Below are positions 542 through 62,676 of a DNA stretch of 64,000 nt, piece by piece; position 1 is the stretch's first letter; each line of letters begins with the position of its first letter. The stretch lies in NCBI GenBank assembly GCA_947259215.1, contig CAMYLJ010000001.1, positions 84,505-148,504 of the forward strand, written 5' to 3'. The notes beneath the pieces were generated by a model. It saw only the letters and a program-made list of their open reading frames with translations, was not told the origin of the DNA and searched no databases. Source of the DNA: an uncultured delta proteobacterium. Its GTDB lineage: Bacteria > Myxococcota_A > UBA9160 > JAFDET01. The position numbers and the translations under genes are program-made.

Positions 542-715
542 AGGCGGGGCCCGCCCGCCGGCAAAGCTACTCGACGGCGGCGGCCTGCTGCGGCTCGCTG
601 GCCGCGCGCGCCGCTCGTCCGGCGAGCCTTCAGTGGCGGGTCCGGGTCAGGCGGGGCCCGCCGGCACCGTCACTCGACGGCGGCGGCCTGCTGCGGCTCG
701 CTGGCCGCGCGCGCC
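542..715. repeat. Local tandem duplication (about 105 bp period) of the ctpA 3' end plus its downstream GC hairpin
   Basis: An identical 44-nt block (actcgacggcggcggcctgctgcggctcgctggccgcgcgcgcc) occurs at 569-612 and 672-715. The string aggcggggcccgcc occurs at 542-555 and 649-662. The right copy is the real ctpA terminus (stop tca at 670-672). The left copy is an orphan with its own stop (cta at 567-569). Confidence 0.85.
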
Positions 716-2085
716 TGGTTCAGGCGCTCGAAGTACGTCCAGCTCTTCAGGACGTCGAGCGCGCGGGCGAGCTGGAGGTCCTGTTCGGCTTCGCTCTCGG
801 CGTCCCCTGCCTCGTCCGGTGTCGCGTCGCCGCCGGGCGCCTCCGCGTCGGGCGCGGCCTCGGGCTCCGCGTCCTGCTGGCGGAAGTGGCCCTCGAGATC
901 GCGCTCGCGGATGCGCCGCGCCCGCGACTCGTCGGCCTCGAGAATCGCCGCCGCGACCTCGATGTCCGGCTCGATGCCGACCTCCTGGATCGAGCGGTCG
1001 CCGGGCGTGTAGTAGAGCGCCGTCGTGAGCCGCAGCCCCGAGCCGTCGTTCAGCGGGATGATGGTCTGCACGGAGCCCTTGCCGAAGGTCTGGGTGCCGA
1101 GGATCAGCGCGCGGTGGTGGTCCTGGAGCGCGCCGGCCACGATCTCCGAGGCGCTCGCCGTGCCGCCGTTCACCAGGATGACGATCGGGTAGCCGGTCTC
1201 GGCGCCGCCGTCGTCGGCCCGGAACTCCTGGCGCTGGCTCTCGTGACGCCCGCGGGTGTAGACGATGAGCCCTTCCTCGAGCCAGACGTCCGCCACCTTC
1301 ACGGCCTGGTCGAGCAGACCGCCCGGGTTGTCCCGCAGGTCGAGGACCAGGCCGCGGAAGTCGTCACCGGCCTCGCTGTGGAGGGCGTCCAGGGTCTTGC
1401 TCAGGTCCGATCCGGTCCGCTCCTGGAAGGCGCGCAGCCGCACGTACGCGTAGCCCGGCTCGAGGAGACGTCCTTCCACCGAACGGATCTTCACGATGTC
1501 GCGCACGATCGTGTAGGGCTGGGGCCGATCGAAGCCTTCGCGGAAGATGCGGATGGTGATCTGCGTGCCCTTCGGACCGCGCATGAGTCGGACCGCCTCG
1601 ACCAGACTCATGTTCTTGGTACCGCGGCACTCCTCGTCGGCCTCCCAGTCCTCGGGCTGCTCGGTGGGACAGATGCCGACGATCTGGTCGCGCGCCTTGA
1701 TCCCCGCCTTGGAAGCGGGGGTGCCCTCGATGGGCGACACCACCTCCACGAAGCCGTCGCGGCGCTTGGCGATCTCGATCCCCAGGCCGGCGAACTCGCC
1801 GCGCGTATCGATCTGCATCTCCTTGTAGACGTCGGGATCGAGGTACGAGGAGTGCGGGTCCAGCTCCTGGAGCATGCCCTTCACCGCACCCTGGATGAGG
1901 TCGCGTTCGCCCACCGGCTCGACGTAGTTCTTGCGCACCAGGTTCAGGACCTCGGTGAAGAGCGAGAGGTCCTCGTAGCGGGTGGCGGCGAACGTGCTCT
2001 GCGGCCCCGGCCAGCCGAGGGCGATCAGGGCCGCGGCCACGCCGGCAGCGAAGGTCACGAGAAAGCGAAGGTTGAACCTGGGCAT
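670..2085 (-). CDS. ctpA: Carboxy-terminal processing protease (peptidase S41, PDZ-containing)
   Basis: 471 aa with an N-terminal TM/signal segment, a PDZ-like region (GLGIEI...VVSPIEGTPASKAGIKARDQIV) and an S41 core (NGGTASASEIVAGALQDHHRALILGTQTFGKGSVQT). Confidence 0.9.
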   Translation of the reverse strand: MPRFNLRFLVTFAAGVAAALIALGWPGPQSTFAATRYEDLSLFTEVLNLVRKNYVEPVGERDLIQGAVKGMLQELDPHSSYLDPDVYKEMQIDTRGEFAGLGIEIAKRRDGFVEVVSPIEGTPASKAGIKARDQIVGICPTEQPEDWEADEECRGTKNMSLVEAVRLMRGPKGTQITIRIFREGFDRPQPYTIVRDIVKIRSVEGRLLEPGYAYVRLRAFQERTGSDLSKTLDALHSEAGDDFRGLVLDLRDNPGGLLDQAVKVADVWLEEGLIVYTRGRHESQRQEFRADDGGAETGYPIVILVNGGTASASEIVAGALQDHHRALILGTQTFGKGSVQTIIPLNDGSGLRLTTALYYTPGDRSIQEVGIEPDIEVAAAILEADESRARRIRERDLEGHFRQQDAEPEAAPDAEAPGGDATPDEAGDAESEAEQDLQLARALDVLKSWTYFERLNQARAASEPQQAAAVE

Positions 2086-4220: not shown

Positions 4221-4936
<716 letters not shown>

Positions 4937-17239: not shown

Positions 17240-17955
17240 GCGAGCCGGTGGTGGAGGCCACCGGTCTCAGCAAGCGGTTCGGACCGGTGGTCGCCCTGCG
17301 CGGCATCGACCTGCAGGTTCCGCGCGGGAGCCTGCTCGCCGTGCTCGGTCCCAACGGTGCCGGCAAGTCCACCCTGCTGCGGCTGCTGGCGGGCCTCGCG
17401 CGCCCGAGCGCGGGAACCCTGCGGGTCGGCGACGCCGCCGGCGACCGGCGTGCGGCCCGGCGCGAGATCGGCTTCATCGGCCACCAGACCTTCCTCTACC
17501 CGGCGCTGACGGCGCGCGAGAACCTGCGCTTCGCCGCCCGGCTCTACGGCGTCGCTGGAGCCGAGGGCCGGATCGCCCGGCTGCTGGCGGAGCAGGACCT
17601 GGAGCCGCTGGCGGATCGCGCGGCGGGAACCCTGTCTCGCGGGCAGGCCCAGCGGCTGGCCATCGCCCGCGGCCTGGTCCACGACCCCGCCGTCGTGCTC
17701 CTCGACGAGCCCATGAGCGGGCTCGACCGGGCGGCGGCGGGTCGCCTGGCTGCGCGCCTCGGACGCCTGCGCGACGACGGGCGCACCCTCGTGCTCGTGA
17801 CCCACGACCTGGCGCGGGCCGCCGAGCTGGCCGACGCCGCGCTGGTGCTGGTGGCCGGCCGCGTCGCCCAGCGTGCCGAAGGCGCCGCGCTCGCGCCGGA
17901 GGAGCTGGAGCGCGCCTACCTCGCGGCCCTGGAGAGCGGCGGAGGTGCGGCGTGA
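17236..17955 (+). CDS. ccmA: Heme exporter ATP-binding protein CcmA
   Basis: GTG at 17236. Walker A GPNGAGKST, signature LSRGQAQRLAIARG and Walker B VLLDEP. Confidence 0.85.
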   Translation: MSEPVVEATGLSKRFGPVVALRGIDLQVPRGSLLAVLGPNGAGKSTLLRLLAGLARPSAGTLRVGDAAGDRRAARREIGFIGHQTFLYPALTARENLRFAARLYGVAGAEGRIARLLAEQDLEPLADRAAGTLSRGQAQRLAIARGLVHDPAVVLLDEPMSGLDRAAAGRLAARLGRLRDDGRTLVLVTHDLARAAELADAALVLVAGRVAQRAEGAALAPEELERAYLAALESGGGAA

Positions 17956-19869: not shown

Positions 19870-20382
19870 GTGGCAACGAGGATGGCCAGCATGAAACGCG
19901 GAGTCGGGTACTGCGAGAACACGGACTGCGAGGATTACGCCAAGGGCGTCTTCCTGTTGAACCATGGCGACACGTTCTACTGCCCGCGCTGTCGTCAGCT
20001 CGGCAAGGTGGAGAAGGAGCGCGGCTTCTACACGGGGAACTCGGACATCTTCAAGGAGGTCCGGGTCGAGTACAACTTCGATCCGATCAACGGAATCTAC
20101 CGGGAGATCGCGATCGTCCGCGACGAGAGCTTGTGGGGCCGCAACAACGTCTACACGCTGCAGTCGCCCCTGATCAAGACCGAGAAGCGCGCCCTCAAGG
20201 TGGCCGAGGCGATCCTGGCCAACTTGAACCGCTACCGCGGGTTGCTCAACGGCGACGACATCCCCCGCACCACCGAGATCATCCTCTCCTTCGACGAGCC
20301 CTTCGAGGAGTTCCAGAAGAAGCTCCAGCAGCTCAGCAAGGAGTGGGAGGCCAGCGGGTTGCGCGAGCAGGCCAGCCGCTAG
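19870..20382 (+). CDS. Orphan zinc-ribbon protein of unknown function
   Basis: The track ORF starts at GTG 19870. More likely starts are ATG 19882 or ATG 19891 (GAGG lies 9 nt upstream of 19891). It has C-x4-C...C-x2-C (CENTDCEDY...YCPRCRQ). The residue mix is K/N/E/I/F/Y-rich, unlike its neighbours, but GC3 is still high. A clean intrinsic terminator follows. Confidence 0.7.
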   Translation: MATRMASMKRGVGYCENTDCEDYAKGVFLLNHGDTFYCPRCRQLGKVEKERGFYTGNSDIFKEVRVEYNFDPINGIYREIAIVRDESLWGRNNVYTLQSPLIKTEKRALKVAEAILANLNRYRGLLNGDDIPRTTEIILSFDEPFEEFQKKLQQLSKEWEASGLREQASR

Positions 20383-20411
20383 CTCGCGACACGAACCGAC
20401 GCGAAGAAGCA

Positions 20412-20446
20412 CCGCCCGGGCCTGACCTCCCGGGCGGTTTTCGTTT
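20412..20446 (+). terminator. Rho-independent terminator of the zinc-ribbon gene
   Basis: Stem CCGCCCGGG (20412-20) with CCCGGGCGG (20429-37), followed by TTTTCGTTT. Confidence 0.8.
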
Positions 20447-20630
20447 GGGCCGGTGCCGGGGGGGGGCGCGTTGGTCCTGCAGGCGGGGCGGGGGCGAAGC
20501 GGGGGCTCGCTGCGCTCCTCCGGTTCGCGCGCCGCGGCCTCACGACGCGAGAGCCGGGTCCGTCAACGCGCTCACAGGCCGCGCTCCGCGAGTGCCCGCT
20601 CCGCCCTCGCGACGCCCTACCGGCGCGCAA

Positions 20631-20773
20631 CGCTTCCGACACCGCGCTGCGAAGAAAGACCGTCACTCGCCGCACCCGGGCGAACACGTCTCCGGAGGTC
20701 GGGGCCGCAAGCGCCGCCTCGGGCGGCGCGCGCAGCGAGCCGAAGGCGAGCGAAGTCACGATAAATGAGAGCC
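20631..20773 (+). repeat. Copy A of a ~144-nt hairpin-bearing intergenic repeat family
   Basis: By hand alignment it is roughly 85-90% identical to 33015-33158. It contains hairpins TCGCC-N7-GGCGA and GCGCCGCC-N3-GGCGGCGC, and the AT-rich tail GAAGTCACGATAAATGA. Confidence 0.85.
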
Positions 20774-20822
20774 ACCCGCGCCCCCGCGAACCCACCGGAG
20801 CCCGCGGCCAACCCAAGCCGCC

Positions 20823-21374
20823 CTACCCCCGCCAGCGCGCAGCCAGGTCGATACACAGCCCCGCCCAGATCGCCCCGGGTCCGTTGTGTTCGTGGCGTTC
20901 GACCGGCTCCGGGTGCTCCGCCAACGCGTCCGCCAGCGGCGCGCGATACCAGGGGAAGAGTCCCGGCGGCGGCGCCTCGGGCGCGAACCAGGCCACGCGG
21001 GGCGTCTCGTCGCTCGCCGTCAGGTTCCCGCCCAGCGGGCGACAGCGCCAGATCCGGGCCCGATGGGGCCGGAACCCGGTCCGGACGTAGTCCCCCACCC
21101 GCCCTTCCAGGGCGATCGCGATTCCCGTCTCCTCCCGCACCTCACGCACGAGCGCGGCCTCCAGTGACTCCCCGGGCTCCGGGTTTCCGCCGGGCAGCTC
21201 CCAGCCCTGGAGGTCCGAGCGCTGACACAGCAGCAGCCCGGCATCGCCCAACACGACGGCCTGCACCACGAGCAGCGGCGCGGCCTCCACCCGCGGCTGC
21301 GCCAAGCCCCACCAGGCGAGCCGGGCGTAGGTGGGCAGCGCGCCGGCGAGCCGCCGCATTGCCCCACTCCCCAC
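20823..21374 (-). CDS. NUDIX hydrolase
   Basis: Nudix box GGNPEPGESLEAALVREVREETG. The start may be the internal ATG at 21356. Confidence 0.8.
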   Translation of the reverse strand: MGSGAMRRLAGALPTYARLAWWGLAQPRVEAAPLLVVQAVVLGDAGLLLCQRSDLQGWELPGGNPEPGESLEAALVREVREETGIAIALEGRVGDYVRTGFRPHRARIWRCRPLGGNLTASDETPRVAWFAPEAPPPGLFPWYRAPLADALAEHPEPVERHEHNGPGAIWAGLCIDLAARWRG

Positions 21375-30361: not shown

Positions 30362-30435
30362 CGCGCCAGGCCGGGGGCCGCCCCCCACGAACCTGAAGCC
30401 CCCGTGAATGCCGGCCGGGCGTCGCGCCCCCGCCG

Positions 30436-30465
30436 TTGGTAACCCCCCGCCCTGCCGCGTAGAAT
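30436..30465 (+). promoter_or_regulatory. Candidate sigma70 promoter of the LysM/SLT gene
   Basis: TTGGTA-N18-TAGAAT. The 9-mer GTAGAATGC also occurs upstream of nhaA. Confidence 0.45.
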
Positions 30466-30587
30466 GCTGGATGGACGGACGAGCGGAGCCCCCCCGAAGG
30501 CCGCGCCGCGAGCGCATCGCGCAGCGCTGGATTCGACTTTCGTTCGCCGTTCGGTCAGGTTCAGACGCGGAACTGCCGATCCAAGCG

Positions 30588-33014
30588 ATGCCGATGAAGC
30601 GCCTTCTCGCCGTCCTCCTGCTGTGTCTGCTGACCGCGCCTGCGGCGGCACCGGCGGAGCCCCTCCCGCGTCCGCCCGGACTGGCGGCGCAGGTCGAGCT
30701 GTGGCGCCGCGTGTACGCAGAAGTGGACAGCGACGCGGGCCTGATCCACGACGACCGCCAGATGGACGTCATCTACGAGGAGCTGCGGGCTCCCCGGAGC
30801 CTCTCGCGCCGCGCCTCGGACCGCCGCGTGAAGGCCGCCAAGAAGAAGTACGCCGACGCCCTGAAGCGGCTGGCAACAGGCAAGCGCAGCGGGCTCAGCG
30901 AGACCGAGAAGCACGTGCTGGCGCTCTGGCCCCCGGACGTCTCCAACGCCACGCTGCGCTCGGCCGCCCGCCGGGTGCGCTTCCAGCGCGGCCTGGCCGA
31001 TCGCTTCCGCGACGGCGTGATCCGGGCCGGCCGCTGGCAGCCCTTCATCGAAGAGGTCTTCCACGAGGCCGGACTGCCGGCCGAGATCGCCGCCCTGCCC
31101 CACGTGGAGTCGTCCTTCAATCCCCACGCCTACTCCAGCGCCGGTGCGGCCGGGCTGTGGCAGTTCACCCGCTCCACGGGCCGGCTCTACATGCACATCG
31201 ACTACACCGTGGACGAGCGCATGGACCCGTACAAGGCCACCGAGGCGGCCGCCCGGCTGCTGCTCGACAACCACGCCGAATTGAAGAGCTGGCCCCTGGC
31301 CATCACTGCCTACAACCACGGGCGCGCGGGCATGCAGCGGGCCGTGCGCACCGTAGGCAGCCGCGACATCACCCGGATCGTCGAGCGCTACAAGGGCCGC
31401 GCCTTCAAGTTCGCGTCGCGGAACTTCTACAGCGAGCTGCTGGCCGCGATCGAGGTGTCGAGCAACGCCGAGCGCTACTTCGGGCCGCTCGAGGTCGAGC
31501 ACGCGCTCGACTACGAGGTGGTGGAGCTCCAGCACTACTACAAGGCAACGAGCCTCGAGCGCGCGCTCGGCATCCCGGCCAAGGTGCTGCGCGAGCACAA
31601 CCTGTCGCTGCGCTCCCCGGTCTGGCGCGGCCAGAAGTACGTGCCGAAGGGCTTCGGCCTGCGCGTCCCGCGCGACCCGGGCGGCGCGCCGGCGGCGGGC
31701 GCCATCGCCGCCATCGCCTCCGCCGAGCGCTTCACGCGCCAGAAGCGCGACACCGTCTACACCGTGCGCCGCGGCGACACCCTCTCCCAGATCGCCAGCC
31801 GCTACGGCACCACCATGTCGGAGCTGGTCGCGCTGAACGGCCTGCGCAGCCGCCATCGCATCCGCATCGGCCAGCGCCTGCGGCTGCCCACGGAAGCCGC
31901 ACCGAGCCTGGCCTCGCTCGAGGACTTCGACGGCAGCTACCGGGTGCGCCGCGGCGACAGCGTGTCGGAGATCGCCCGCCGCTTCGGCGTCGCCGAAGCC
32001 GAGCTGGTCGCCGCCAACGGCCTCCGCAACAAGAACCGCCTCTACGTCGGCCAGACCCTTCAGGTCCCCGTCGCCGGCGACAAGGCCAGCGAGCCGAAGC
32101 CGACCGAAGTCGCCAGTGCCGCGAAGAAGCCCGCTGCGACGAAGCCTGCCGAGACCCCGAAGGCGACCGACGAGTCACCGGAGAAGCCGGTCGAAGTCGC
32201 CGCCGTCGCGCCGAAGCCCGAAGCCACGGCGCCCGCCGCGGACGAAGCGAAGCCGGCCCCCGAGGAACGCGAGCCGCCGAAACCCACCCCGGCCACGAAG
32301 GAAGCCCGCACCGCGGAACCCGAGAAGCCCGTAGAGGTCGCAAAGGCCAACCCCGACACCGAGGCCTCCGCGCCCGCCGAGCCCACCAGTGCGAGCGGCC
32401 CCGCAAGCCCGGCGCCCCGCAGCTCGGACGACCCGGAAGCCCCGACGCCGGGCGCGCAGCTCGCCGAAGGCGAGCGAAGTCACGATAAATCGGAGCCGAC
32501 CGAGCCCCGCGAACCCTCCCACGCCCGCGGCCCCAGCGAGATCGCCTCCAGCCCCGGCGCCTCCCCTCCCGTGAGCCGCCCGCCGCCCGTGTCGATCGGA
32601 GTCGGCGCCGACGACCGCATCGTGGTCGAGGCCGGCGAGACCCTCGGCCACTACGCCGATTGGCTCGAGCTGGCCACCGAGCGCCTGCGCCGCACCAACG
32701 GCATGCGCCGACGCTCGGACATCGTGATCGGGCAGCGCGTGCTCCTGGACTTCTCGCGCGTCTCACGCAGCGAGTTCGAAGCGCGCCGCCTCCGCTACCA
32801 CGAGTCGATCCAGGCGGCCTTCTTCGCCGATCACCGGGTCGCCGGCACCCGCTCCCACGTCCTGCGCCGGGGCGACACCCTCTGGAGCCTCTCCCGCCGC
32901 CACCGCTCGGTACCCCTCTGGCTCCTCCGCCAGTACAACCCCCAGCTCGACCTGACCGACCTGCAACCCGGCGTCACGATCACGATCCCCCGCGTCCAGA
33001 AACGAAGCACCTGA
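30588..33014 (+). CDS. Membrane-bound lytic murein transglycosylase (MltD-like): SLT domain plus LysM repeats
   Basis: I prefer ATG at 30588 (MPMKRLLAVLLLCLL signal). SLT active site ALPHVESSFNPHAYSSAGAAGLWQF. LysM repeats: YTVRRGDTLSQIASRYG and YRVRRGDSVSEIARRFG, plus a C-terminal LysM-like copy HVLRRGDTLWSLSRRH. A long P/E/A/K-rich linker separates them. Confidence 0.85.
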   Translation: MPMKRLLAVLLLCLLTAPAAAPAEPLPRPPGLAAQVELWRRVYAEVDSDAGLIHDDRQMDVIYEELRAPRSLSRRASDRRVKAAKKKYADALKRLATGKRSGLSETEKHVLALWPPDVSNATLRSAARRVRFQRGLADRFRDGVIRAGRWQPFIEEVFHEAGLPAEIAALPHVESSFNPHAYSSAGAAGLWQFTRSTGRLYMHIDYTVDERMDPYKATEAAARLLLDNHAELKSWPLAITAYNHGRAGMQRAVRTVGSRDITRIVERYKGRAFKFASRNFYSELLAAIEVSSNAERYFGPLEVEHALDYEVVELQHYYKATSLERALGIPAKVLREHNLSLRSPVWRGQKYVPKGFGLRVPRDPGGAPAAGAIAAIASAERFTRQKRDTVYTVRRGDTLSQIASRYGTTMSELVALNGLRSRHRIRIGQRLRLPTEAAPSLASLEDFDGSYRVRRGDSVSEIARRFGVAEAELVAANGLRNKNRLYVGQTLQVPVAGDKASEPKPTEVASAAKKPAATKPAETPKATDESPEKPVEVAAVAPKPEATAPAADEAKPAPEEREPPKPTPATKEARTAEPEKPVEVAKANPDTEASAPAEPTSASGPASPAPRSSDDPEAPTPGAQLAEGERSHDKSEPTEPREPSHARGPSEIASSPGASPPVSRPPPVSIGVGADDRIVVEAGETLGHYADWLELATERLRRTNGMRRRSDIVIGQRVLLDFSRVSRSEFEARRLRYHESIQAAFFADHRVAGTRSHVLRRGDTLWSLSRRHRSVPLWLLRQYNPQLDLTDLQPGVTITIPRVQKRST
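32448..32531 (+). repeat. Copy B (partial, 3' half) of the repeat family, embedded in frame in the LysM/SLT coding region
   Basis: gggcgcgcagctcgccgaaggcgagcgaagtcacgataaatcggagcc... aligns to copy A 20720-20812. It is translated as AEGERSHDKSEPTEPREP. Confidence 0.75.
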
Positions 33015-33158
33015 CGCCTCCGACACCGCGCTCCGAAGAAGGACCGCCACTCGCCCCTCCGCGGCGAACACGCCTCCGGAGGCCGAGGCCGCAAGCGCCG
33101 CCGCAGGCGGCGCGCGCAGCGAGCCAAAGGCGAGCGAAGTCACGCTAAATGAAGAGCC
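33015..33158 (+). repeat. Copy C of the ~144-nt repeat family
   Basis: It starts 1 nt after the LysM/SLT stop codon. Same two hairpin stems as copy A but with different loops, and a GAAGTCACGCTAAATGA tail. Confidence 0.85.
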
Positions 33159-33200
33159 GGAGGAGCCACGCGAGCGCTGCGGCGCCGCGCGGCGAGGAAG

Positions 33201-33872
33201 TCACCGCACCTGAAACAGCGTCTCGTCCGGCAGCCGGATCGCCGTCAACGGCCCCCCGTAACAGGCCCCCGTGTCGATGCCGATGCTGAAGGGCGTGTTC
33301 CAGCGCACCTCCAGGTCCGGCGCCGGCGTGTGGCCGTAGATCACGGTCACCCCGAGGCGATGGGGCAGGTCGCCGCTGCTGCGCGACCAGAGCAGGTCCT
33401 CCGGGCGCGACCGCCGCAGCACGTACGCCACGTCACTCTGCTGGATGTGCCGCTCGTGAATGCCCGCGTGCACGAACAGGTAGTCGCCTTCCTGATGGTA
33501 CAGCCGCAGCTCCTGGTAGAACTTCTCGTGGGACTGGGGCAGGCGGAAGCGCGCCTCGCGGTCCTCGAAGTAGCCGTAGCTCGCCAGGGTGCGGTCGCCG
33601 CCGTTCAGCAGGAAGGCGTCGCCCCCGAAGTGCTCCTGCCCCGCCCAGCCCAGGAAGTCCAGGAACATGGCCTCGTGGTTCCCGATCAGGAAGACGCAGT
33701 CGATCTCCCGGGAGAGCTCGATCAGCCGCTCCACCACGCCGTGCGCGTCGGGGCCGCGGTCGACGTAGTCCCCGAGAAACACCAGACGGTCGTCGGGCTC
33801 GAGCGGCATGCGCTCGAGCAACGCGTCCAGCTTCTCCCGCTCCCCGTGGATGTCCCCCACCGCGTACAGCAC
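33201..33872 (-). CDS. Metallophosphoesterase (PPP-family Ser/Thr phosphatase / ApaH-like)
   Basis: GDIHG, GDYVDRG and GNHE motifs. Confidence 0.85.
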   Translation of the reverse strand: MLYAVGDIHGEREKLDALLERMPLEPDDRLVFLGDYVDRGPDAHGVVERLIELSREIDCVFLIGNHEAMFLDFLGWAGQEHFGGDAFLLNGGDRTLASYGYFEDREARFRLPQSHEKFYQELRLYHQEGDYLFVHAGIHERHIQQSDVAYVLRRSRPEDLLWSRSSGDLPHRLGVTVIYGHTPAPDLEVRWNTPFSIGIDTGACYGGPLTAIRLPDETLFQVR

Positions 33873-38877: not shown

Positions 38878-40286
38878 GGCTGCCCGTACACCGCGCGGTC
38901 GTCGCGCGCGGACTTGTTGAGGCGGTTCTCCAGGTGCAGGCCCTCCAGCAGGAACTCGATGGCGCTGGCGAGGTGGCCCGGGCTCGTGCCCCCGGCCAGG
39001 CGCGCCGCCGCCTCCCGCAGCCCGGGGATGGCGTCGAGGCCCTCCAGGTACTCGCGCGCCGGCATGTCGCCGGAGACCTCGACGTTCCAGCCCTGGTTGA
39101 ACGCCTCCACCACCGTGGCCAGGCCTTCTCCGAGGCCGAAGCCGTCGAAGACCTGCTTGACGGCGCGGCGGCGCAGCTCGTCGATCACGTCGCTCTCGCT
39201 CTTGTCCGCTCCGGCGTACTCCAGCTCGAGCTTGCCCGTGCTGGACGCCTCGAGCGCCGCCAGGTCCGAGATGCGCGGCACGGCCTCGGCCTCGCCGTGT
39301 CGCAGCGCCCGGCGTGCGGCGTTGGCGGCCAGGGTCTCGTAGTTGGCGATGGTCATGCGGACCGAGACACCCGAGGTCTGGTTCACGTCCGGGCTCTGAC
39401 GGGCCTGGAAGGTCATCTCCGCCACGATGTCCTGCATGAAGCCGGGCAGCGCAACCTCGACCCCGTCGATGCGGGGCAGCACGGCCTCCTGCCGCACGAT
39501 CGCCAGCTCGAGCTCGCGGGTCTCGGGGTAGTGGGTGCGGATCTGGGCCGCGTAGCGGTCCTTCAAGGGCGTGATGATGCGACCCCGGCTGGTGTAGTCC
39601 TCGGGATTGGCGCTGGCCACCACCAGCACGTCCAGCGGCAGCCGAACCCGGTAGCCCCTCACCTGGAAGTCGCGCTCCTCCAGCACGTTGAAGAGCGCGA
39701 CCTGCACCTTCTCCGTCAGGTCCGGCAGCTCGTTGATGCAGAAGATCCCGCGGTTCGTGCGCGGAAGCAGACCGAAATGGATCGTGCGCTCGTCGCCCAG
39801 GGTGCGCCCCTCGGCCACCTTGACCGGGTCCACGTCGCCGATCAGGTCGGCCACCGAGGTGTCGGGAGTCGCGAGCTTCTCGCCGTAGCGCTGGTCGCGG
39901 TGCACCCAGACCACCGGGGTCGCGTCTCCCTCCTCGGCCACCCGCCGCCGGGCGAAGGCGGACACGGGCGCCAGCGGGTCGTCGCAGATCTCGCTGCCCG
40001 CCACGGCGGGGACCCACTCGTCCAGCAGTCCCACCAGCGCGCGGATCAGGCGCGACTTCGCCTGACCGCGCTCGCCCAGGAAGATCAGGTCGTGGCCGCA
40101 CAGGAGCGCGTTCTCCAGCGCCGGAACCACGCTCTCGTCGTAGCCCAGGATGCCCTCGAACAAGGGCCGCCCGGCGCGCAGGGCCTCGAGCAGGTTTGCG
40201 CGCAGCTCCTCGCGCAGGCTGCGGGGCCCGACGCCCGAGGCGCGCAGGGCGCCGAGGTGGGTGTCTTCGGGGCGGGGGGCGGTCAT
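38874..40286 (-). CDS. AAA+ ATPase, Mg-chelatase subunit I-like (COG1239-like)
   Basis: ATG at 40286 is preceded by GGAGGA. Walker A-like GERGQAKS, Walker B-like FCINELPDL and VALFNVLEERDFQVRGY. Trimmed from the 735-aa track ORF. Confidence 0.8.
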   Translation of the reverse strand: MTAPRPEDTHLGALRASGVGPRSLREELRANLLEALRAGRPLFEGILGYDESVVPALENALLCGHDLIFLGERGQAKSRLIRALVGLLDEWVPAVAGSEICDDPLAPVSAFARRRVAEEGDATPVVWVHRDQRYGEKLATPDTSVADLIGDVDPVKVAEGRTLGDERTIHFGLLPRTNRGIFCINELPDLTEKVQVALFNVLEERDFQVRGYRVRLPLDVLVVASANPEDYTSRGRIITPLKDRYAAQIRTHYPETRELELAIVRQEAVLPRIDGVEVALPGFMQDIVAEMTFQARQSPDVNQTSGVSVRMTIANYETLAANAARRALRHGEAEAVPRISDLAALEASSTGKLELEYAGADKSESDVIDELRRRAVKQVFDGFGLGEGLATVVEAFNQGWNVEVSGDMPAREYLEGLDAIPGLREAAARLAGGTSPGHLASAIEFLLEGLHLENRLNKSARDDRAVYGQP

Positions 40287-47077: not shown

Positions 47078-47158
47078 CGCCGGGCTACGCCCGGCGGCTC
47101 GGCCTTCGCTCGCCTGCGGAAGAGGATGACTCGGAAGTCGGCCGCGGGGCCGACTTCC
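47078..47158. terminator. Two GC hairpins between convergent genes (probable bidirectional terminator region)
   Basis: CGCCGGGC-tac-GCCCGGCG (47078-96) and the perfect 11-bp stem GGAAGTCGGCC-gcgg-GGCCGACTTCC (47133-58). No U-tract. Confidence 0.5.
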
Positions 47159-47225
47159 CCGCCTGCTTGGCGCTGTCGCTGAGACCGCTGCGCGCCCCGC
47201 GATCGAGCTGGGAGGGCATGCGGCC

Positions 47226-48098
47226 TCAGGAGCGCGGGGCTTGCGGCGCGTCCGCCTCCGACGGCTCGCGCGGGCGCGGAGGCTCTAGCTCTCGTTCTGG
47301 CTCCGGGATTGGAGTGCGCAGGGCGAGCAGCGTTCCCGAGACGACGAGGCCCGGCATCGCGAGGAAGTTCAGGCCGGGGACGAGCAGGGTCGCGAAGGCG
47401 GCGCCGCCGAAGCCGAGCATGCGCGCGCGATGGGCGAGGATCCAGCGGCGACGCGCGCGGAAGGGTACGCGCCGGCGATCGTGGGTGTAGCCGGCGTAGT
47501 CGAGCGGCAGGAACAGCATCGCGAAGAGCAGCATCGCCGGTGGCGCCAGCAGCGCGCCGCCCGGCAGCAGGACGCCCGCCAGGAAGAGCCCCGCCTGCAC
47601 CGCCGCGAAGAAGGTCCCGCGCCGCAGCTCCAGCGCCACGGCGCGCAGCGCCTCCCGGGCCATGCCGCCCACACCCCCGTCGGAGCCGTCCTGCACCCCG
47701 CCCGTGGCCAGCGTCTCCACACGCCGCGAGAGCGCGTCCAGGAAGGGCGCGCCGAGGGCGCCCGCCAGGATCCACGCCGCCGCCAGGACGGCGCCGCAGG
47801 CCGCCGCGAAGAGCAGCGCCCCCGCCGCAGCCAGGACAGCCCGGGCGGGGCCGACCCACAGCCAGGCGTACCAGGCGCCGGCCTCCGGCCACGGCAGCCA
47901 GCCGGCGGTCCAGCCCCACAGCGCTCCGGCCTGGCTCGCGATGGCCAGGGCCGCCAGCCCGAGGGCCAGCATCCCCAGGACGAAGGGCACGGCCGCGGGC
48001 AGCCACAGGCGGCGCTCCCGCGCCAGCGTGCGCAGCCCCTCCCCGTGAAGCGCCATCCCCGCGGCGACCTCGCGCCCGACCGGCGCCGCGCCGCTCAA
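47226..48098 (-). CDS. EI24/CysZ-like (DUF540) integral membrane protein
   Basis: 290 aa, multi-TM, with LPLDYAGYTHDRR-type loop motifs. Confidence 0.6.
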   Translation of the reverse strand: MSGAAPVGREVAAGMALHGEGLRTLARERRLWLPAAVPFVLGMLALGLAALAIASQAGALWGWTAGWLPWPEAGAWYAWLWVGPARAVLAAAGALLFAAACGAVLAAAWILAGALGAPFLDALSRRVETLATGGVQDGSDGGVGGMAREALRAVALELRRGTFFAAVQAGLFLAGVLLPGGALLAPPAMLLFAMLFLPLDYAGYTHDRRRVPFRARRRWILAHRARMLGFGGAAFATLLVPGLNFLAMPGLVVSGTLLALRTPIPEPERELEPPRPREPSEADAPQAPRS

Positions 48099-58618: not shown

Positions 58619-58645
58619 GTGGGATGAAGTGGGATCAAGTGGGAT
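58619..58645 (+). promoter_or_regulatory. Probable MraZ operator: three direct GTGGGAT repeats with 10-nt periodicity
   Basis: GTGGGATgaaGTGGGATcaaGTGGGAT. Related or inverted copies lie at 58542-48, 58650-56 and 58675-86. A candidate promoter TTGCCG-N16-TGTAAA sits at 58580-58607, with an A7 tract at 58550-56. Confidence 0.7.
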
Positions 58646-58691
58646 GCAGATCCCATCACCGACGCCACCGAGGGTTGGGATCCCATCAACG

Positions 58692-59135
58692 ATGTTTCGG
58701 GGCCGGGCTGTCCATACGATCGACCAGAAGGGTCGGCTGAGCATTCCGGCGGGATTTCGGATGGAACTGGAACGACGCAGCGAGCGGGCACCGATCCTCA
58801 CCAACCAGCTCCAGTGTCTGGCGCTCTACCCCTACGAGGGCTGGCGCGAGATCGAGCAGGAGCTGGAGGAGGCCTCCCCGCTCCAGCCCGAGGTCCAGGC
58901 CCTGGGCCGCTTCCTCATCTCGGGCGCCAGCGAGTGCCCCGTCGACAAGCAGGGGCGGATCTCGATTCCCCAGGTGCTGCGCGAGCACGCGGCCCTGGAC
59001 AAGGAAGTGATGGTCGCCGGCGTGGGGCGGCACGTGGAGATCTGGGACCGCACGCGGTTCGAGCAGGAGCTCGCCCGCACCCAGGCCCAGTTCAACGAGA
59101 TTTCCGCGACCGTGGCGCGGGAGCGCCGGTCGTGA
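58692..59135 (+). CDS. mraZ: Transcriptional regulator MraZ
   Basis: ATG at 58692 (MFRGRAVHTIDQKGRLSIPAGFR). The second SpoVT/AbrB-like repeat reads VDKQGRISIPQVLRE. Confidence 0.9.
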   Translation: MFRGRAVHTIDQKGRLSIPAGFRMELERRSERAPILTNQLQCLALYPYEGWREIEQELEEASPLQPEVQALGRFLISGASECPVDKQGRISIPQVLREHAALDKEVMVAGVGRHVEIWDRTRFEQELARTQAQFNEISATVARERRS

Positions 59136-59387
59136 CGCGCGGTGTTGGGGGGTTCGGAGGAGCTCGCTCCTCCGGGTGAGAGGTTGGGGTGTCCCCGGGG
59201 CGTTCCGTGGTGGCGGACTCGTCAAGGGGGGGACGGGCCGCTGGTGCGGCGTTCCGGGGCACCCCAGACCCCTCTCGGTTTTTCGGGAGCGGTCGGGTCG
59301 GGCGACGTGACGTACGGCGGGGCATCCCCGCCAGCCCAGCGCGGGCGCTCCAGGACGCACAGACGAGGATGGGCCGCGGAGGCCCGA

Positions 59388-60340
<953 letters not shown>

Positions 60341-60344
<4 letters not shown>

Positions 60345-60700
60345 CGTCCCTGGAACGGCACCCCACCCTGCTCGCCCGGCCCGCGAGCCAGCGGCCGGCC
60401 TGGTGGCCCGCTCGCGGCCTCGCGCTCGCGATCGTGGCCACGGCCCTGACCCTGGCACTCGGCCTCTCGAGCCTGCGCGGCCGCATCATCGAGCTCCGCT
60501 ATCGGGCCGCCGAGGTCCTGCGCGAAGAGCGCTCTCTCGAGGCCGAGCGCCGCGAGCTGGCCGCCCGGGTACAGCGGCTGCGCGATCCGAAGCGACTGGC
60601 CGCCCTGGCCCGGGAGCGCGGCTTCGCGCGGCCGGAGCGCCTCCAGAGCCTCGCACCCGCCAGCCGACCGGGCGGGGACGTGGAGCCCGCCGGGCGATGA
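60341..60700 (+). CDS. ftsL: Cell division protein FtsL
   Basis: GTGA overlap with rsmH. Single TM segment (GLALAIVATALTLALGL) plus a coiled coil. Position is canonical. Confidence 0.7.
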
Positions 60701-62676
60701 GGTCGCCCGCCCTTCGCATCTCGACGAGGCGGCTCGGGATCGCGAGGGCGGCTCTGCTGATCGCACTGATGGCCCTCTCTGCGCGCAGCGTCCAGCTCGC
60801 CTTCGACGGCCGCAGCCTGGAGCGCGCCCGGGTGCAGCAGGGCACCTGGCTGCGCATCGCCGCCGAGCGCGGAGCCCTGTTCGATCGCAACGGCGCCGAG
60901 CTCGCGGTCACCACCACGGCGCCATCGGTGTTCGCGCGCCCGCGGCTCGTCACGGACCCGGACGCGGCGGCCAGGCGCCTGGCGCGGACCCTCGGCATGG
61001 ATCGCCGCGGGCTGGCCGCGCGGCTGCGAAGGGACTCGAACTTCGTCTTCCTCGCGCGCTGGATCGACCCGAAGCGCGCCGGGCGGGTCCGCGCGCTCGA
61101 CATCCCGGGCATCGAGATCGCCGACGAGCCGCGCCGCGTCTACCCGCACGACGAGCTGGCCGCGTCCGTGATCGGGTTCGCCAACATCGACGGCGAGGGC
61201 GTGCGCGGGGTGGAGCAGCAGCAGGACGGCTGGCTGCGCGGTGCACCCCAGGTCTACCGCGTGGAGCGCGACGCGCGGGGGCGCCTGCTGGGGATGGCGG
61301 GCCTGCGCCGCGCGGCGGCGCGCGGCGGCGATGTGCGCCTCAGCCTCGACGCCGGCTTCCAGGCCGATGCGGAGGAGGCCCTGGCGGCGGCCGTGGGAAC
61401 GACCTCGGCGCGCGCCGGCAGCGTCGTCAGCCTGGACCCCCACTCGGGCGAGATCCTGGCCCTCGCCGAGTGGCCCAGCTTCGACCCCAACGCCTTCCGG
61501 CGCGTGCGCTACGCCGACACTGGCTCGCGCGCCTTCCAGTCGGCGCTCGAGCCGGGCTCGACCCTGAAGGCCTTCCTGGTGGCCGGGGCCCTGGAAGCCC
61601 AGGCCGTGCGGGTCGACCAGGTGATCGACCTCGAGGGCGGGTCGTACCGCGTCCCCGGCAAGACCATCCGCGACCTCCACCCGAAAGGGGACCTGCGGCC
61701 GGCCGGCGTGCTGCGTGTCTCGAGCAACGTCGGGGCCGTCAAGATCGCCCAGGCCCTGGGCCCCGAGCGGCACTTCGAGACCCTGCGGGCGTTCGGGTTC
61801 GGGGAACGCAGCGGAAGCGGATTCCCCTTCGAGTCCACCGGCCTCTTGCGCTCGTGGCGCCACTGGCGACCGGTGGACCATGCCACCGTGGCCTTCGGCC
61901 AGGGTCTCGGCGTCACGCCCGTCCAGCTCGCCGCCGCGACGGCGGTGCTGGCCAACGGCGGCACCCTGATGCGCCCGCGCCTGGTGGACGCCCGGCGTCG
62001 CCCCGGCGGCCCGTGGCGCCCCACGACGCCGGAGCGCGTGCGGCGGGTGCTGTCGCGGGAGACGGCGGCAGCCGTGCGCGAGATGCTGGAGGCGGTGGCC
62101 ACCCCCGAGGGCACCGCGCGTCGCGCCGCGCTCGTCGGGGTGCCGGTGGCCGGCAAGACCGGCACGGCCCAGAAGCTCGACCGCGACGCGGGAACGTACT
62201 CGGCGACCCGCTATCATGCCTGGTTCGTAGGCATCGTTCCTGCCGACGAGCCCCGGCTGGTGATCGTGGCCGAGCTCGACGAGCCGAGGGCGGGCCTGCA
62301 TCACGGTGGGGCGTCGGCGGCGCCGCTCTTTGCGGCGGTGGCCAGCGCCCAGCTTGCACGGCTCGGCATCGCGACCGAGCCGAAGTGGCGGCGGCCCACA
62401 GCCGTGGCCGTCGCCCGGGCGACCGCGCCCCCTGCCCCCGAGGCGCGGTCGGCGGAACTCGAACGGTTGACCCGAGTCGGTGACCGGCTGTTTCTGCCGG
62501 ACTTCCGCGGCCTGACCGTGGCGGAGGTGCGGGCGATCACGGCGGGGCAGGCCCTCGACCTCGAGATTGTCGGCGAGGGCCGCGCCATCGACCAGGACCC
62601 CGACCCGGGCACGATCCTGGCCGGCGCCCGGAAGCGGATCCGGGTCCATTTCGACCGGGACGGAAACGAGGGCTGA
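60697..62676 (+). CDS. ftsI: Peptidoglycan D,D-transpeptidase FtsI (PBP3) with a C-terminal PASTA-like domain
   Basis: ATGA overlap with ftsL. Motifs: SXXK (GSTLKAF), SSN (RVSSNVG) and KTGT (AGKTGTA). Confidence 0.9.
   Translation: MRSPALRISTRRLGIARAALLIALMALSARSVQLAFDGRSLERARVQQGTWLRIAAERGALFDRNGAELAVTTTAPSVFARPRLVTDPDAAARRLARTLGMDRRGLAARLRRDSNFVFLARWIDPKRAGRVRALDIPGIEIADEPRRVYPHDELAASVIGFANIDGEGVRGVEQQQDGWLRGAPQVYRVERDARGRLLGMAGLRRAAARGGDVRLSLDAGFQADAEEALAAAVGTTSARAGSVVSLDPHSGEILALAEWPSFDPNAFRRVRYADTGSRAFQSALEPGSTLKAFLVAGALEAQAVRVDQVIDLEGGSYRVPGKTIRDLHPKGDLRPAGVLRVSSNVGAVKIAQALGPERHFETLRAFGFGERSGSGFPFESTGLLRSWRHWRPVDHATVAFGQGLGVTPVQLAAATAVLANGGTLMRPRLVDARRRPGGPWRPTTPERVRRVLSRETAAAVREMLEAVATPEGTARRAALVGVPVAGKTGTAQKLDRDAGTYSATRYHAWFVGIVPADEPRLVIVAELDEPRAGLHHGGASAAPLFAAVASAQLARLGIATEPKWRRPTAVAVARATAPPAPEARSAELERLTRVGDRLFLPDFRGLTVAEVRAITAGQALDLEIVGEGRAIDQDPDPGTILAGARKRIRVHFDRDGNEG

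Follow-up and report, generated by a model that had tools for sequence, protein, structure and literature searches.

The repeat that begins at position 20630 of the window, the whole stretch of 64,000 nucleotides analysed here (GC content 73%), is probably a copy in a previously undescribed, lineage-restricted family of REP/RPE/MIRU-like stem-loop repeats of uncultured Myxococcota, which would have spread as hairpin DNA. Copies of this family are known in both orientations, singly or in short direct tandem arrays, and occupy two settings: the spacers at gene 3′ ends, and disordered linkers and tails of unrelated proteins, where they are translated.

Extent and setting of copies A and C

Two copies in the window, A and C, were compared along their whole length:

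20630..20822, plus strand: copy A, the long form of the element, about 190 nt
33014..33200, plus strand: copy C, which spans the whole spacer from the LysM/SLT stop to the Metallophos stop; its module lies at 33090-33141 (77.5 bits with the covariance model)

An earlier note on this DNA had described A and C as a repeat in the same orientation at roughly 85–90% identity, and the ungapped alignment of 20630-20768 with 33014-33152 bears this out (89% identity over 139 nt). The repeat is real, but the 144-nt length given for it stops short, as the similarity continues for about 40 nt, to about 20812-20822; the gapped alignment of 20630-20808 with 33014-33193 displays 84% identity over 181 nt (E = 1e-44). 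Gene coordinates also confirm that convergent gene pairs flank both copies. Copy A lies between a small zinc-ribbon-like gene (19870..20382, plus strand), on the terminator side, and the stop codon of a NUDIX gene (20823..21374, minus strand), and copy C between a LysM/SLT (MltD-like) gene (30408..33014, plus strand) and a Metallophos gene (33201..33872, minus strand). The features of copy A and its surroundings are the following, relatives here and below being contigs of uncultured Myxococcota:

20411..20438, no strand assigned: bidirectional intrinsic terminator of the A-site convergent pair, outside the repeat, conserved in relatives L008 and L010
20667..20683, plus strand: hairpin 1, TCGCC-gcacccg-GGCGA, with TCGCC (20667-20671) paired with GGCGA (20679-20683)
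20690-20697, plus strand: palindrome CTCCGGAG
20711-20729, plus strand: hairpin 2, GCGCCGCC-tcg-GGCGGCGC, inside the core module
20752..20768, plus strand: AT-rich tail GAAGTCACGATAAATGA, in the form common to A and C GAAGTCACG(A/C)TAAATGA

Both hairpins, the palindrome CTCCGGAG and the AT-rich tail are present in A as they had been described, and the observation that loops vary while stems are invariant between A and C stands as well: the 10 loop positions account for 6 of the 15 substitutions, the 26 stem positions for none (p about 4e-4 for clustering in loops, our binomial estimate). Hairpin 1 is specific to the A/C subfamily and is not kept in the ortholog of A, and the AT-rich tail beyond GAAGTC is confined to the A/B/C subfamily.

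A 12-mer, GGCTCGCTGCGC, had been mentioned as possibly placing copy A in a longer inverted-repeat context, or as chance. Its position is 20504-20515, not 20497-20508, with the reverse complement at 20730-20741, and its five matches in the window with at most one mismatch compare with 5.5 expected by chance, so that this context falls away. On neither strand does the sequence to the left of A resemble the element significantly. Between the terminator and A there is an extra spacer of about 185 nt (20446-20629). L008, the distant relative, lacks this spacer; its conservation in L010 is about 70%, and the window holds no paralog of it. A 24-nt island within it, CGGGGGCTCGCTGCGCTCCTCCGG, is fully conserved and includes 12 nt that are reverse-complementary to part of the module core; the 12-mer sits inside this island, conserved in L010.

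Further copies in the window

The earlier note had named the lack of copies beyond A and C as one of the points that would refute it. Such copies do exist: B, B′ and D in the window, and more in relatives and on another Myxococcota contig. Counted within these 64 kb of the source genome, they are:

32402..32532, plus strand: copy B, partial, within the linker encoded by LysM/SLT (30408..33014); its module, at 32402-32481, scores 53.6 bits
32067..32111, plus strand: B′, a degenerate module-like sequence at the start of the LysM/SLT linker that encodes VAGDKASEPKPTEV; 21.9 bits, E about 1e-3
47152..47294, minus strand: copy D, reversed and of the B type; module at 47152-47245, 26.8 bits
47049..47114, minus strand: D2, a possible second degenerate module in the convergent spacer of D, weak at 13.7 bits

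At 32433-32532, B shares 80% identity with the 3′ 105 nt of A, and the B module carries a 31-nt insertion in the hairpin loop. The copy is located in the linker between LysM domains, inside the 868-aa LysM/SLT ORF, and its in-frame product is AQLAEGERSHDKSEP. B′ matches hairpin 2 and the core that follows it with a score of 24, compared to a maximum of 17 among 894 control segments. Copy D was found via the covariance model, and all 8 of its 8 stem pairs are standard; its upstream part (47187-47294) aligns with B at 69.7% identity over 109 nt (E = 3.5e-10). The D module lies in another convergent spacer, at the end of an EI24/CysZ-like gene (47226..48098, minus strand), of which it spans both the C-terminal tail and the stop codon (47226-47228). 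Weak covariance-model matches at 40213, 17042, 59920, 63747 and 41788 look on inspection like GC-rich noise.

The location of A, B and C within 12.5 kb and in the same orientation is what a one-off local segmental duplication with no wider family would produce. The probability of this explanation is nevertheless close to nil, as it is refuted by copy D, 14 kb away on the other strand, by the eight modules on an unrelated contig described below and by the occupied sites in sister species.

A 52-nt module is the conserved unit

The part of the element that recurs in all these settings is far shorter than the element itself:

20706..20757, plus strand: core module of A, 52 nt (covariance model R1, 78.7 bits)

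The module starts with CGCAAGC, continues with a GC hairpin (stem of about 8 bp, loop of 3 nt), which is hairpin 2, and ends with GCGCAGCGAGCCGAAGGCGAGCGAAGTC; in A, the stretch 3′ of hairpin 2 reads GCGCAGCGA-GCC-GAA-GGC-GAGCGAAGTC. It is composed of hairpin 2 and the start of the conserved tail, the CACGATAAAT end being specific to the A/B/C subfamily, and in the lineage of the window it is nested in the longer element of about 190 nt. The repeat family put forward on the basis of 144 nt is retained, but its conserved unit is the 52-nt module.

When the peptide of the open frame in A and C was searched exhaustively with HMMER, it matched a histidine kinase fragment, MDJ0866705.1 (Myxococcota), which has three tandem 33-aa repeats containing GARSEPKASEV. 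The 10.9-kb contig that encodes it (L015, from GCA_029979955.1, which may or may not share a genome with the window) carries eight 52-nt modules:

Kinase (HisKA) coding region: modules H1-3, in-frame tandem, 99-nt period
Just after the kinase gene, reverse orientation: three intergenic modules, 82-nt period
C-terminal tail of TatA/B: modules T1-2, translated, 63-nt period

Across the copies the module stays near the family consensus while its flanks drift. At 1-261 and 895-1128 of this contig, sense arrays in the 5′ coding part of a gene are accompanied by antisense arrays just past its stop codon, and the kinase transcript could pair with itself in three places, each about 50 nt long and about 80% complementary.

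Covariation of the module hairpin

We examined base pairing in 11 distinct module copies, using as controls 500 shuffles and partner columns slid by 1 to 3 positions. Paired cells amount to 91.7% in the observed alignment and 75.9% in the shuffled ones, and 6 of the 11 pairs are changed on both sides, compared to 2.0 ± 0.9 after shuffling; for the 8-bp hairpin by itself, this is the case for 5 of the 8 pairs across the 11 copies. The covariation score is 0.274, against 0.049 in shuffles and 0.069 or less in the slid-partner controls, with the caveats that some rows are related and that the structure is derived from the same sequences. None of the 500 shuffles reached any of the observed covariation values. 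Between shared outer G-C and C-G pairs, the versions of the stem include GCCGCC/GGCGGC, GCCGGC/GCCGGC, GCCC/GGGC and CCGGCG/CGCCGG, and copy D contributes a further fully paired variant (full stem GCCCCGCG/CGCGGGGC). In the GCC-GAA-GGC mini-hairpin, the middle pair is flipped in two copy types. The compensatory changes do not by themselves prove selection, because template-switch mutation can keep palindromes perfect.

The full-length copies alone show no covariation at all, and fold energies are ordinary for the base composition, being no better than those of shuffles both for the whole element (z = +1.17 and −0.02) and for the correctly framed hairpin stretches (z = −1.2 to +0.4). A thermodynamically exceptional fold was dismissed on these z-scores. 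In the ortholog of A on L010, one pair of hairpin 1 is broken, CTCCGGAG has become CTCCAGGG and one pair of hairpin 2 is G.A. The proposal that selection acts on the structure of both hairpins is not supported: L010 breaks a pair in each, and the fold energies are unremarkable. The covariation that the earlier note had asked for is present in hairpin 2 over the 11 copies. That note would have given up the family had there been neither further copies nor covariation; both are found, and its own refutation test thus fails.

Translated copies and the question of a coding origin

Several copies are translated (B and B′ in LysM/SLT, D in the C-terminus of the CysZ-like protein, and the HisKA and TatA/B copies of L015), which overturns the confinement of the family to intergenic or 3′-UTR positions suggested by A and C. 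The LysM/SLT gene is a single ORF through B, with the domains on either side in the same frame, and the peptide encoded by B is AQLAEGERSHDK. Such in-frame insertion with the ORF kept open is seen in LysM/SLT and, in L015, in HisKA and TatA/B.

The nucleotides of B are kept whatever the frame in which they are read. In P0001, the closest LysM/SLT homolog (83% identical), the B core DNA is read as ARSEPKASEVTINEEP, compared to AQLAEGERSHDKSEP in the window: compensating indels separate the window gene from this ortholog, so that the frame differs and the nucleotides are preserved. Between 32395-32500 of the window and 8560-8650 of L004, about 25 linker codons are in different frames in two sister species, owing to a 1-nt indel and an indel of roughly 25 nt that compensate each other. 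In the B linker of the window, TGA became TCG and the frame stays open. The LysM/SLT protein of the window is absent from the protein collection, in which its NUDIX neighbour is present.

These translated copies bring up an opposite history, in which the sequence began as coding DNA: ARSEPKASEV, a peptide repeat of low complexity, would have passed from gene to gene, and what lies between genes would be decayed gene fragments. Such a history would account for the use of the same frame in four contexts (P0001, HisKA, TatA/B and B′), for the codon adaptation of B′ and for the GC3 of the module in the shared frame, which is fairly high by our reading. Against it, the window copy of B is in another frame and D in a third, the intergenic arrays are in reverse orientation, stem changes alter amino acids yet keep base pairing, and rare codons (ATA, AAT) occur in a gene with 95% GC3; the GC3 of B is 0.79 compared to 0.95 in the rest of the LysM/SLT gene. 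Furthermore, A and C lack coding periodicity: their GC content by codon phase is 0.80/0.67/0.70, as opposed to 0.71/0.50/0.95 in real genes, and the substitutions between them are distributed over the phases as 6/4/5. Among the coding copies, every variable codon alters the amino acid, so that the constraint lies on the DNA or RNA and not on the peptide. We consider a coding origin highly unlikely and, as far as composition and substitution patterns can tell, the copies are not coding in origin. A small ORF or pseudogene was rejected for A and C, whose substitutions show no 3-periodicity, with stops in two of the three forward frames and an empty peptide search (six-frame peptides of the element against 5.8 billion proteins, no matches).

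Orthologous sites and the age of the copies

The sister species (JGI sample 3300037489) has a 4-fold-site identity to the window of 0.83–0.87, an estimate that leaves out three wrong-frame gene pairs and the C-terminal part of LysM, the value of which was anomalous. In this species, site A is occupied at the same position (L010-L014) and site B is occupied in the LysM linker (L004). At site C, the LysM-Metallophos spacer has only 31 nt (L004 9156-9186), but in these nucleotides what look like the two ends of the element, CGCCTCCG (5′) and CGCGGCCAAC (3′), are joined to each other. This points to the internal loss of about 155 nt from C rather than to a site that was never occupied. The closer relative L007 retains C. 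A third relative, L009, retains the 3′ part of A with an internal duplication; at 750-865 of its minus strand, this is a tandem duplication of about 48 nt, and the AT-rich motif ATAAAT has become CTAACT. In the more distant relative L008, whose NUDIX protein is 70% identical, site A is empty: the spacer is 70 nt long and the shared bidirectional terminator is its only hairpin.

Identity along the element is uneven in both the orthologous and the paralogous comparison:

A, window versus L010: 5′ 93 nt 80.6%, next 46 nt 97.8%, 3′ tail 63%
A versus C: 5′ 93 nt 86%, next 46 nt 95.7%, 3′ tail 44%

Identity reaches 93–98% in the 46 A/C columns, which hold the hairpin's 3′ arm together with the conserved tail and the AT-rich end; outside this core, it is 81–86% in the 5′ part and 44–63% in the 3′ tail. 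In the non-element flank of A, the window species and the L010 species share about 70% identity. Considering the pattern of occupancy and absence across L004, L007, L008, L009 and L010-L014, the copies are old and restricted to the lineage. All datable copies are old and fixed and thus give no evidence of ongoing mobility.

Hallmarks of mobility and database searches

Reading the element as a MITE, as had been considered, finds no footing in terminal inverted repeats or a clean target-site duplication. The best match of the 5′ end to the reverse-complemented 3′ end scores 5 in A and 7 in C, at or below the shuffle mean. A 9-nt direct repeat, CGCCCTACC, brackets A (20613-20621 and 20819-20827), its left copy lying 8 nt outside the start of the A/C homology and its right copy overlapping the NUDIX stop codon, with a chance probability of about 1–2% by our estimate; the pair may have been left by a target duplication or by a tandem one. 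The flanks of C share a direct repeat of a 6-mer only. Among the proteins of the window that were scanned, which are housekeeping, there was no transposase, RAYT, integrase or reverse transcriptase.

Rfam yielded no match at gathering thresholds in the whole window, with noise only around A and C (E of 0.2 or above), and a known RNA family was discarded for this reason. A template or variable repeat of a DGR was discarded as well, as the differences between A and C involve all four bases and no reverse transcriptase is present among the window proteins scanned. By eye, the element fits neither a retron nor an attC, dif or parS site nor a sigma-54 or sigma-70 promoter, and the promoter scan gave no site. 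The pattern GCGAGCGAAGTCACGNTAAAT had three chance matches in genomes, one true ortholog in metagenomes and none in viral contigs; it was blind to copies of the L015 type because it included the AT tail of the A/B/C subfamily. A degenerate module pattern likewise had no matches in viral contigs, and blastn returned none in plasmids and phages. With no Rfam match and an empty literature search, we found no described family of this kind in Myxococcota.

Possible functions of the module

A function in the host could also underlie the conservation of the module. It may be an RNA signal, such as a 3′-end stabiliser, a processing site, a weak terminator or a device for sense/antisense pairing between transcripts, in which, for example, antisense A in the NUDIX 3′ UTR would pair with sense B and C in the mltD-like mRNA. 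Copies A, C, D and the intergenic array of L015 are all directly downstream of stop codons, and the 3′ boundary of the element is about 10 nt (A) and about 7 nt (C) from the convergent minus-strand stop codon. The covarying hairpin, a module conservation that exceeds that of synonymous sites in orthologous copies and the retention of the B nucleotide sequence in any reading frame point the same way. However, no U-tract follows the hairpin on either strand, and the terminator scan was negative at hairpin 1 and hairpin 2 of A, B and C, its sole matches in the element being weak minus-strand stems that end in the AT-rich tail (20785-20767 in A, 32509-32491 in B). The promoter scan found no promoter-like sites, the copies are in both orientations relative to neighbouring genes, and relatives live without them, C being absent from the close relative L004 and A from L008. 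On balance, an RNA signal is unlikely.

Alternatively, the module may be the binding site of a chromosomal or regulatory protein, with two direct half-sites, GCGAGC(C)GAAG, placed about 10.5 bp apart beside a hairpin or cruciform. Hardly any variation is seen in the 28-nt tail between loci, species or reading frames, and the spacing of its direct repeat, as read from the sequence, is about one helical turn. Coding tandem arrays and gene 3′ ends would be odd places for regulation, though, the site has no palindromic or known operator-like architecture, and tandem arrays with identical spacers resemble amplification more than site placement; we regard this explanation as very doubtful.

A more speculative possibility, to which we assign a low probability, is that the module goes beyond passive selfish DNA and is either the substrate of an undescribed enzyme specific for the hairpin and tail, which would write new peptide segments into disordered regions of proteins, or a host regulatory signal whose sense and antisense copies pair between transcripts. 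In the second case, the mltD-like mRNA would pair with the 3′ UTRs of the convergent genes, and the HisKA 5′ coding array with its own 3′ UTR array. Either option, if true, would explain the constant nucleotide sequence across loci, species and reading frames.

Comparison with known repeat systems

REP/BIME elements are extragenic, form clusters in alternating orientation, reach more than 100 copies per genome and are associated with a RAYT gene (PMC2817692). The family described here shares with them a short GC-rich stem-loop with conserved flanks, the stems of which vary but stay paired, the occurrence in both orientations, single or clustered, the location of many copies at gene 3′ ends and a lineage-specific sequence. 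The 8-bp hairpin corresponds to the conserved stem-loop formed by an imperfect palindrome in REP elements. In contrast to REP/BIME, copies are not limited to extragenic positions (B, B′, D, L015 H1-3 and T1-2), and the arrays are direct tandem, with periods of 99, 82 and 63 nt, instead of alternating in orientation. Moreover, the module is longer (52 nt), and its conserved tail of 28 nt is drawn as single-stranded; it has several copies in coding regions and no GTAG-type head, no RAYT gene is present among the window proteins scanned, and the copies are known from 64 kb and relatives.

Rickettsia palindromic elements (RPE) are non-autonomous and lie either between genes or in frame in unrelated proteins, to which they add a tolerated peptide (PMC10969869). 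A non-autonomous repeat of about 100–190 nt that is intergenic and also in-frame in unrelated proteins is common to both families, which we compared by description only and which would not be expected to be related in sequence. The present one belongs to an unrelated host phylum with GC-rich DNA, and its insertions are in disordered linkers and tails, some of them tandemly amplified. MITEs are small, non-autonomous, multi-copy elements that can fuse in frame with host ORFs (PMC10969869), traits that the present family shares; the terminal inverted repeats that define them are missing here.

The module arrays also resemble those of MIRUs in that direct tandem repeats of 40–100 bp are scattered over several loci of a GC-rich genome. 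Mycobacterial interspersed repetitive units (MIRU) are intergenic within operons and are not known to have a defined covarying hairpin. Of the module arrays, those with 63- and 99-nt periods, which are multiples of three, are translated, and the one with an 82-nt period lies between genes. No sequence similarity to MIRUs is known, and a covarying hairpin is present. The family resembles REP/BIME, RPE and MIRU but is by definition a member of none of them.

Proposed spread of the family and its significance

We propose that the stem-loop family spread in the following way. Hairpin-forming DNA would be copied to new sites by a hairpin-recognising enzyme or by recombination; an enzyme of the RAYT/HUH type is our guess for this copying step, and none is found among the window proteins scanned. 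Local slippage would then let arrays grow, gene conversion or selection would keep the module uniform, and copies would survive only where they are harmless.

Small structured repeats are poorly catalogued outside model bacteria, and the present family is a clean example of one DNA module that is non-coding in one place and translated in another, in different frames in sister species. As such, it has a bearing on the origin of disordered protein segments, on gene and pseudogene calling in GC-rich metagenome-assembled genomes and on strain markers based on repeats of this sort. Should an RNA function or a dedicated enzyme underlie the conserved module, the family would provide a new handle on REP-like biology.

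Other features of the window

Three further features of the window were recorded. At 509-715, about 107 nt are duplicated in tandem, with 93% identity in the best-matching part; the duplication takes in a GC hairpin, GGCGGGGCCCGCC, as well as the 3′ end of an S41 protease gene (670..2085, minus strand). A 69-nt inverted repeat, 4728-4796 and 17346-17414, is 78% complementary and has an ordinary explanation, as it represents the Walker A motifs of two ABC ATPase genes on opposite strands. The start of the division and cell-wall (dcw) cluster, with mraZ, rsmH and a PBP transpeptidase with a PASTA domain, occupies 58629-62676.
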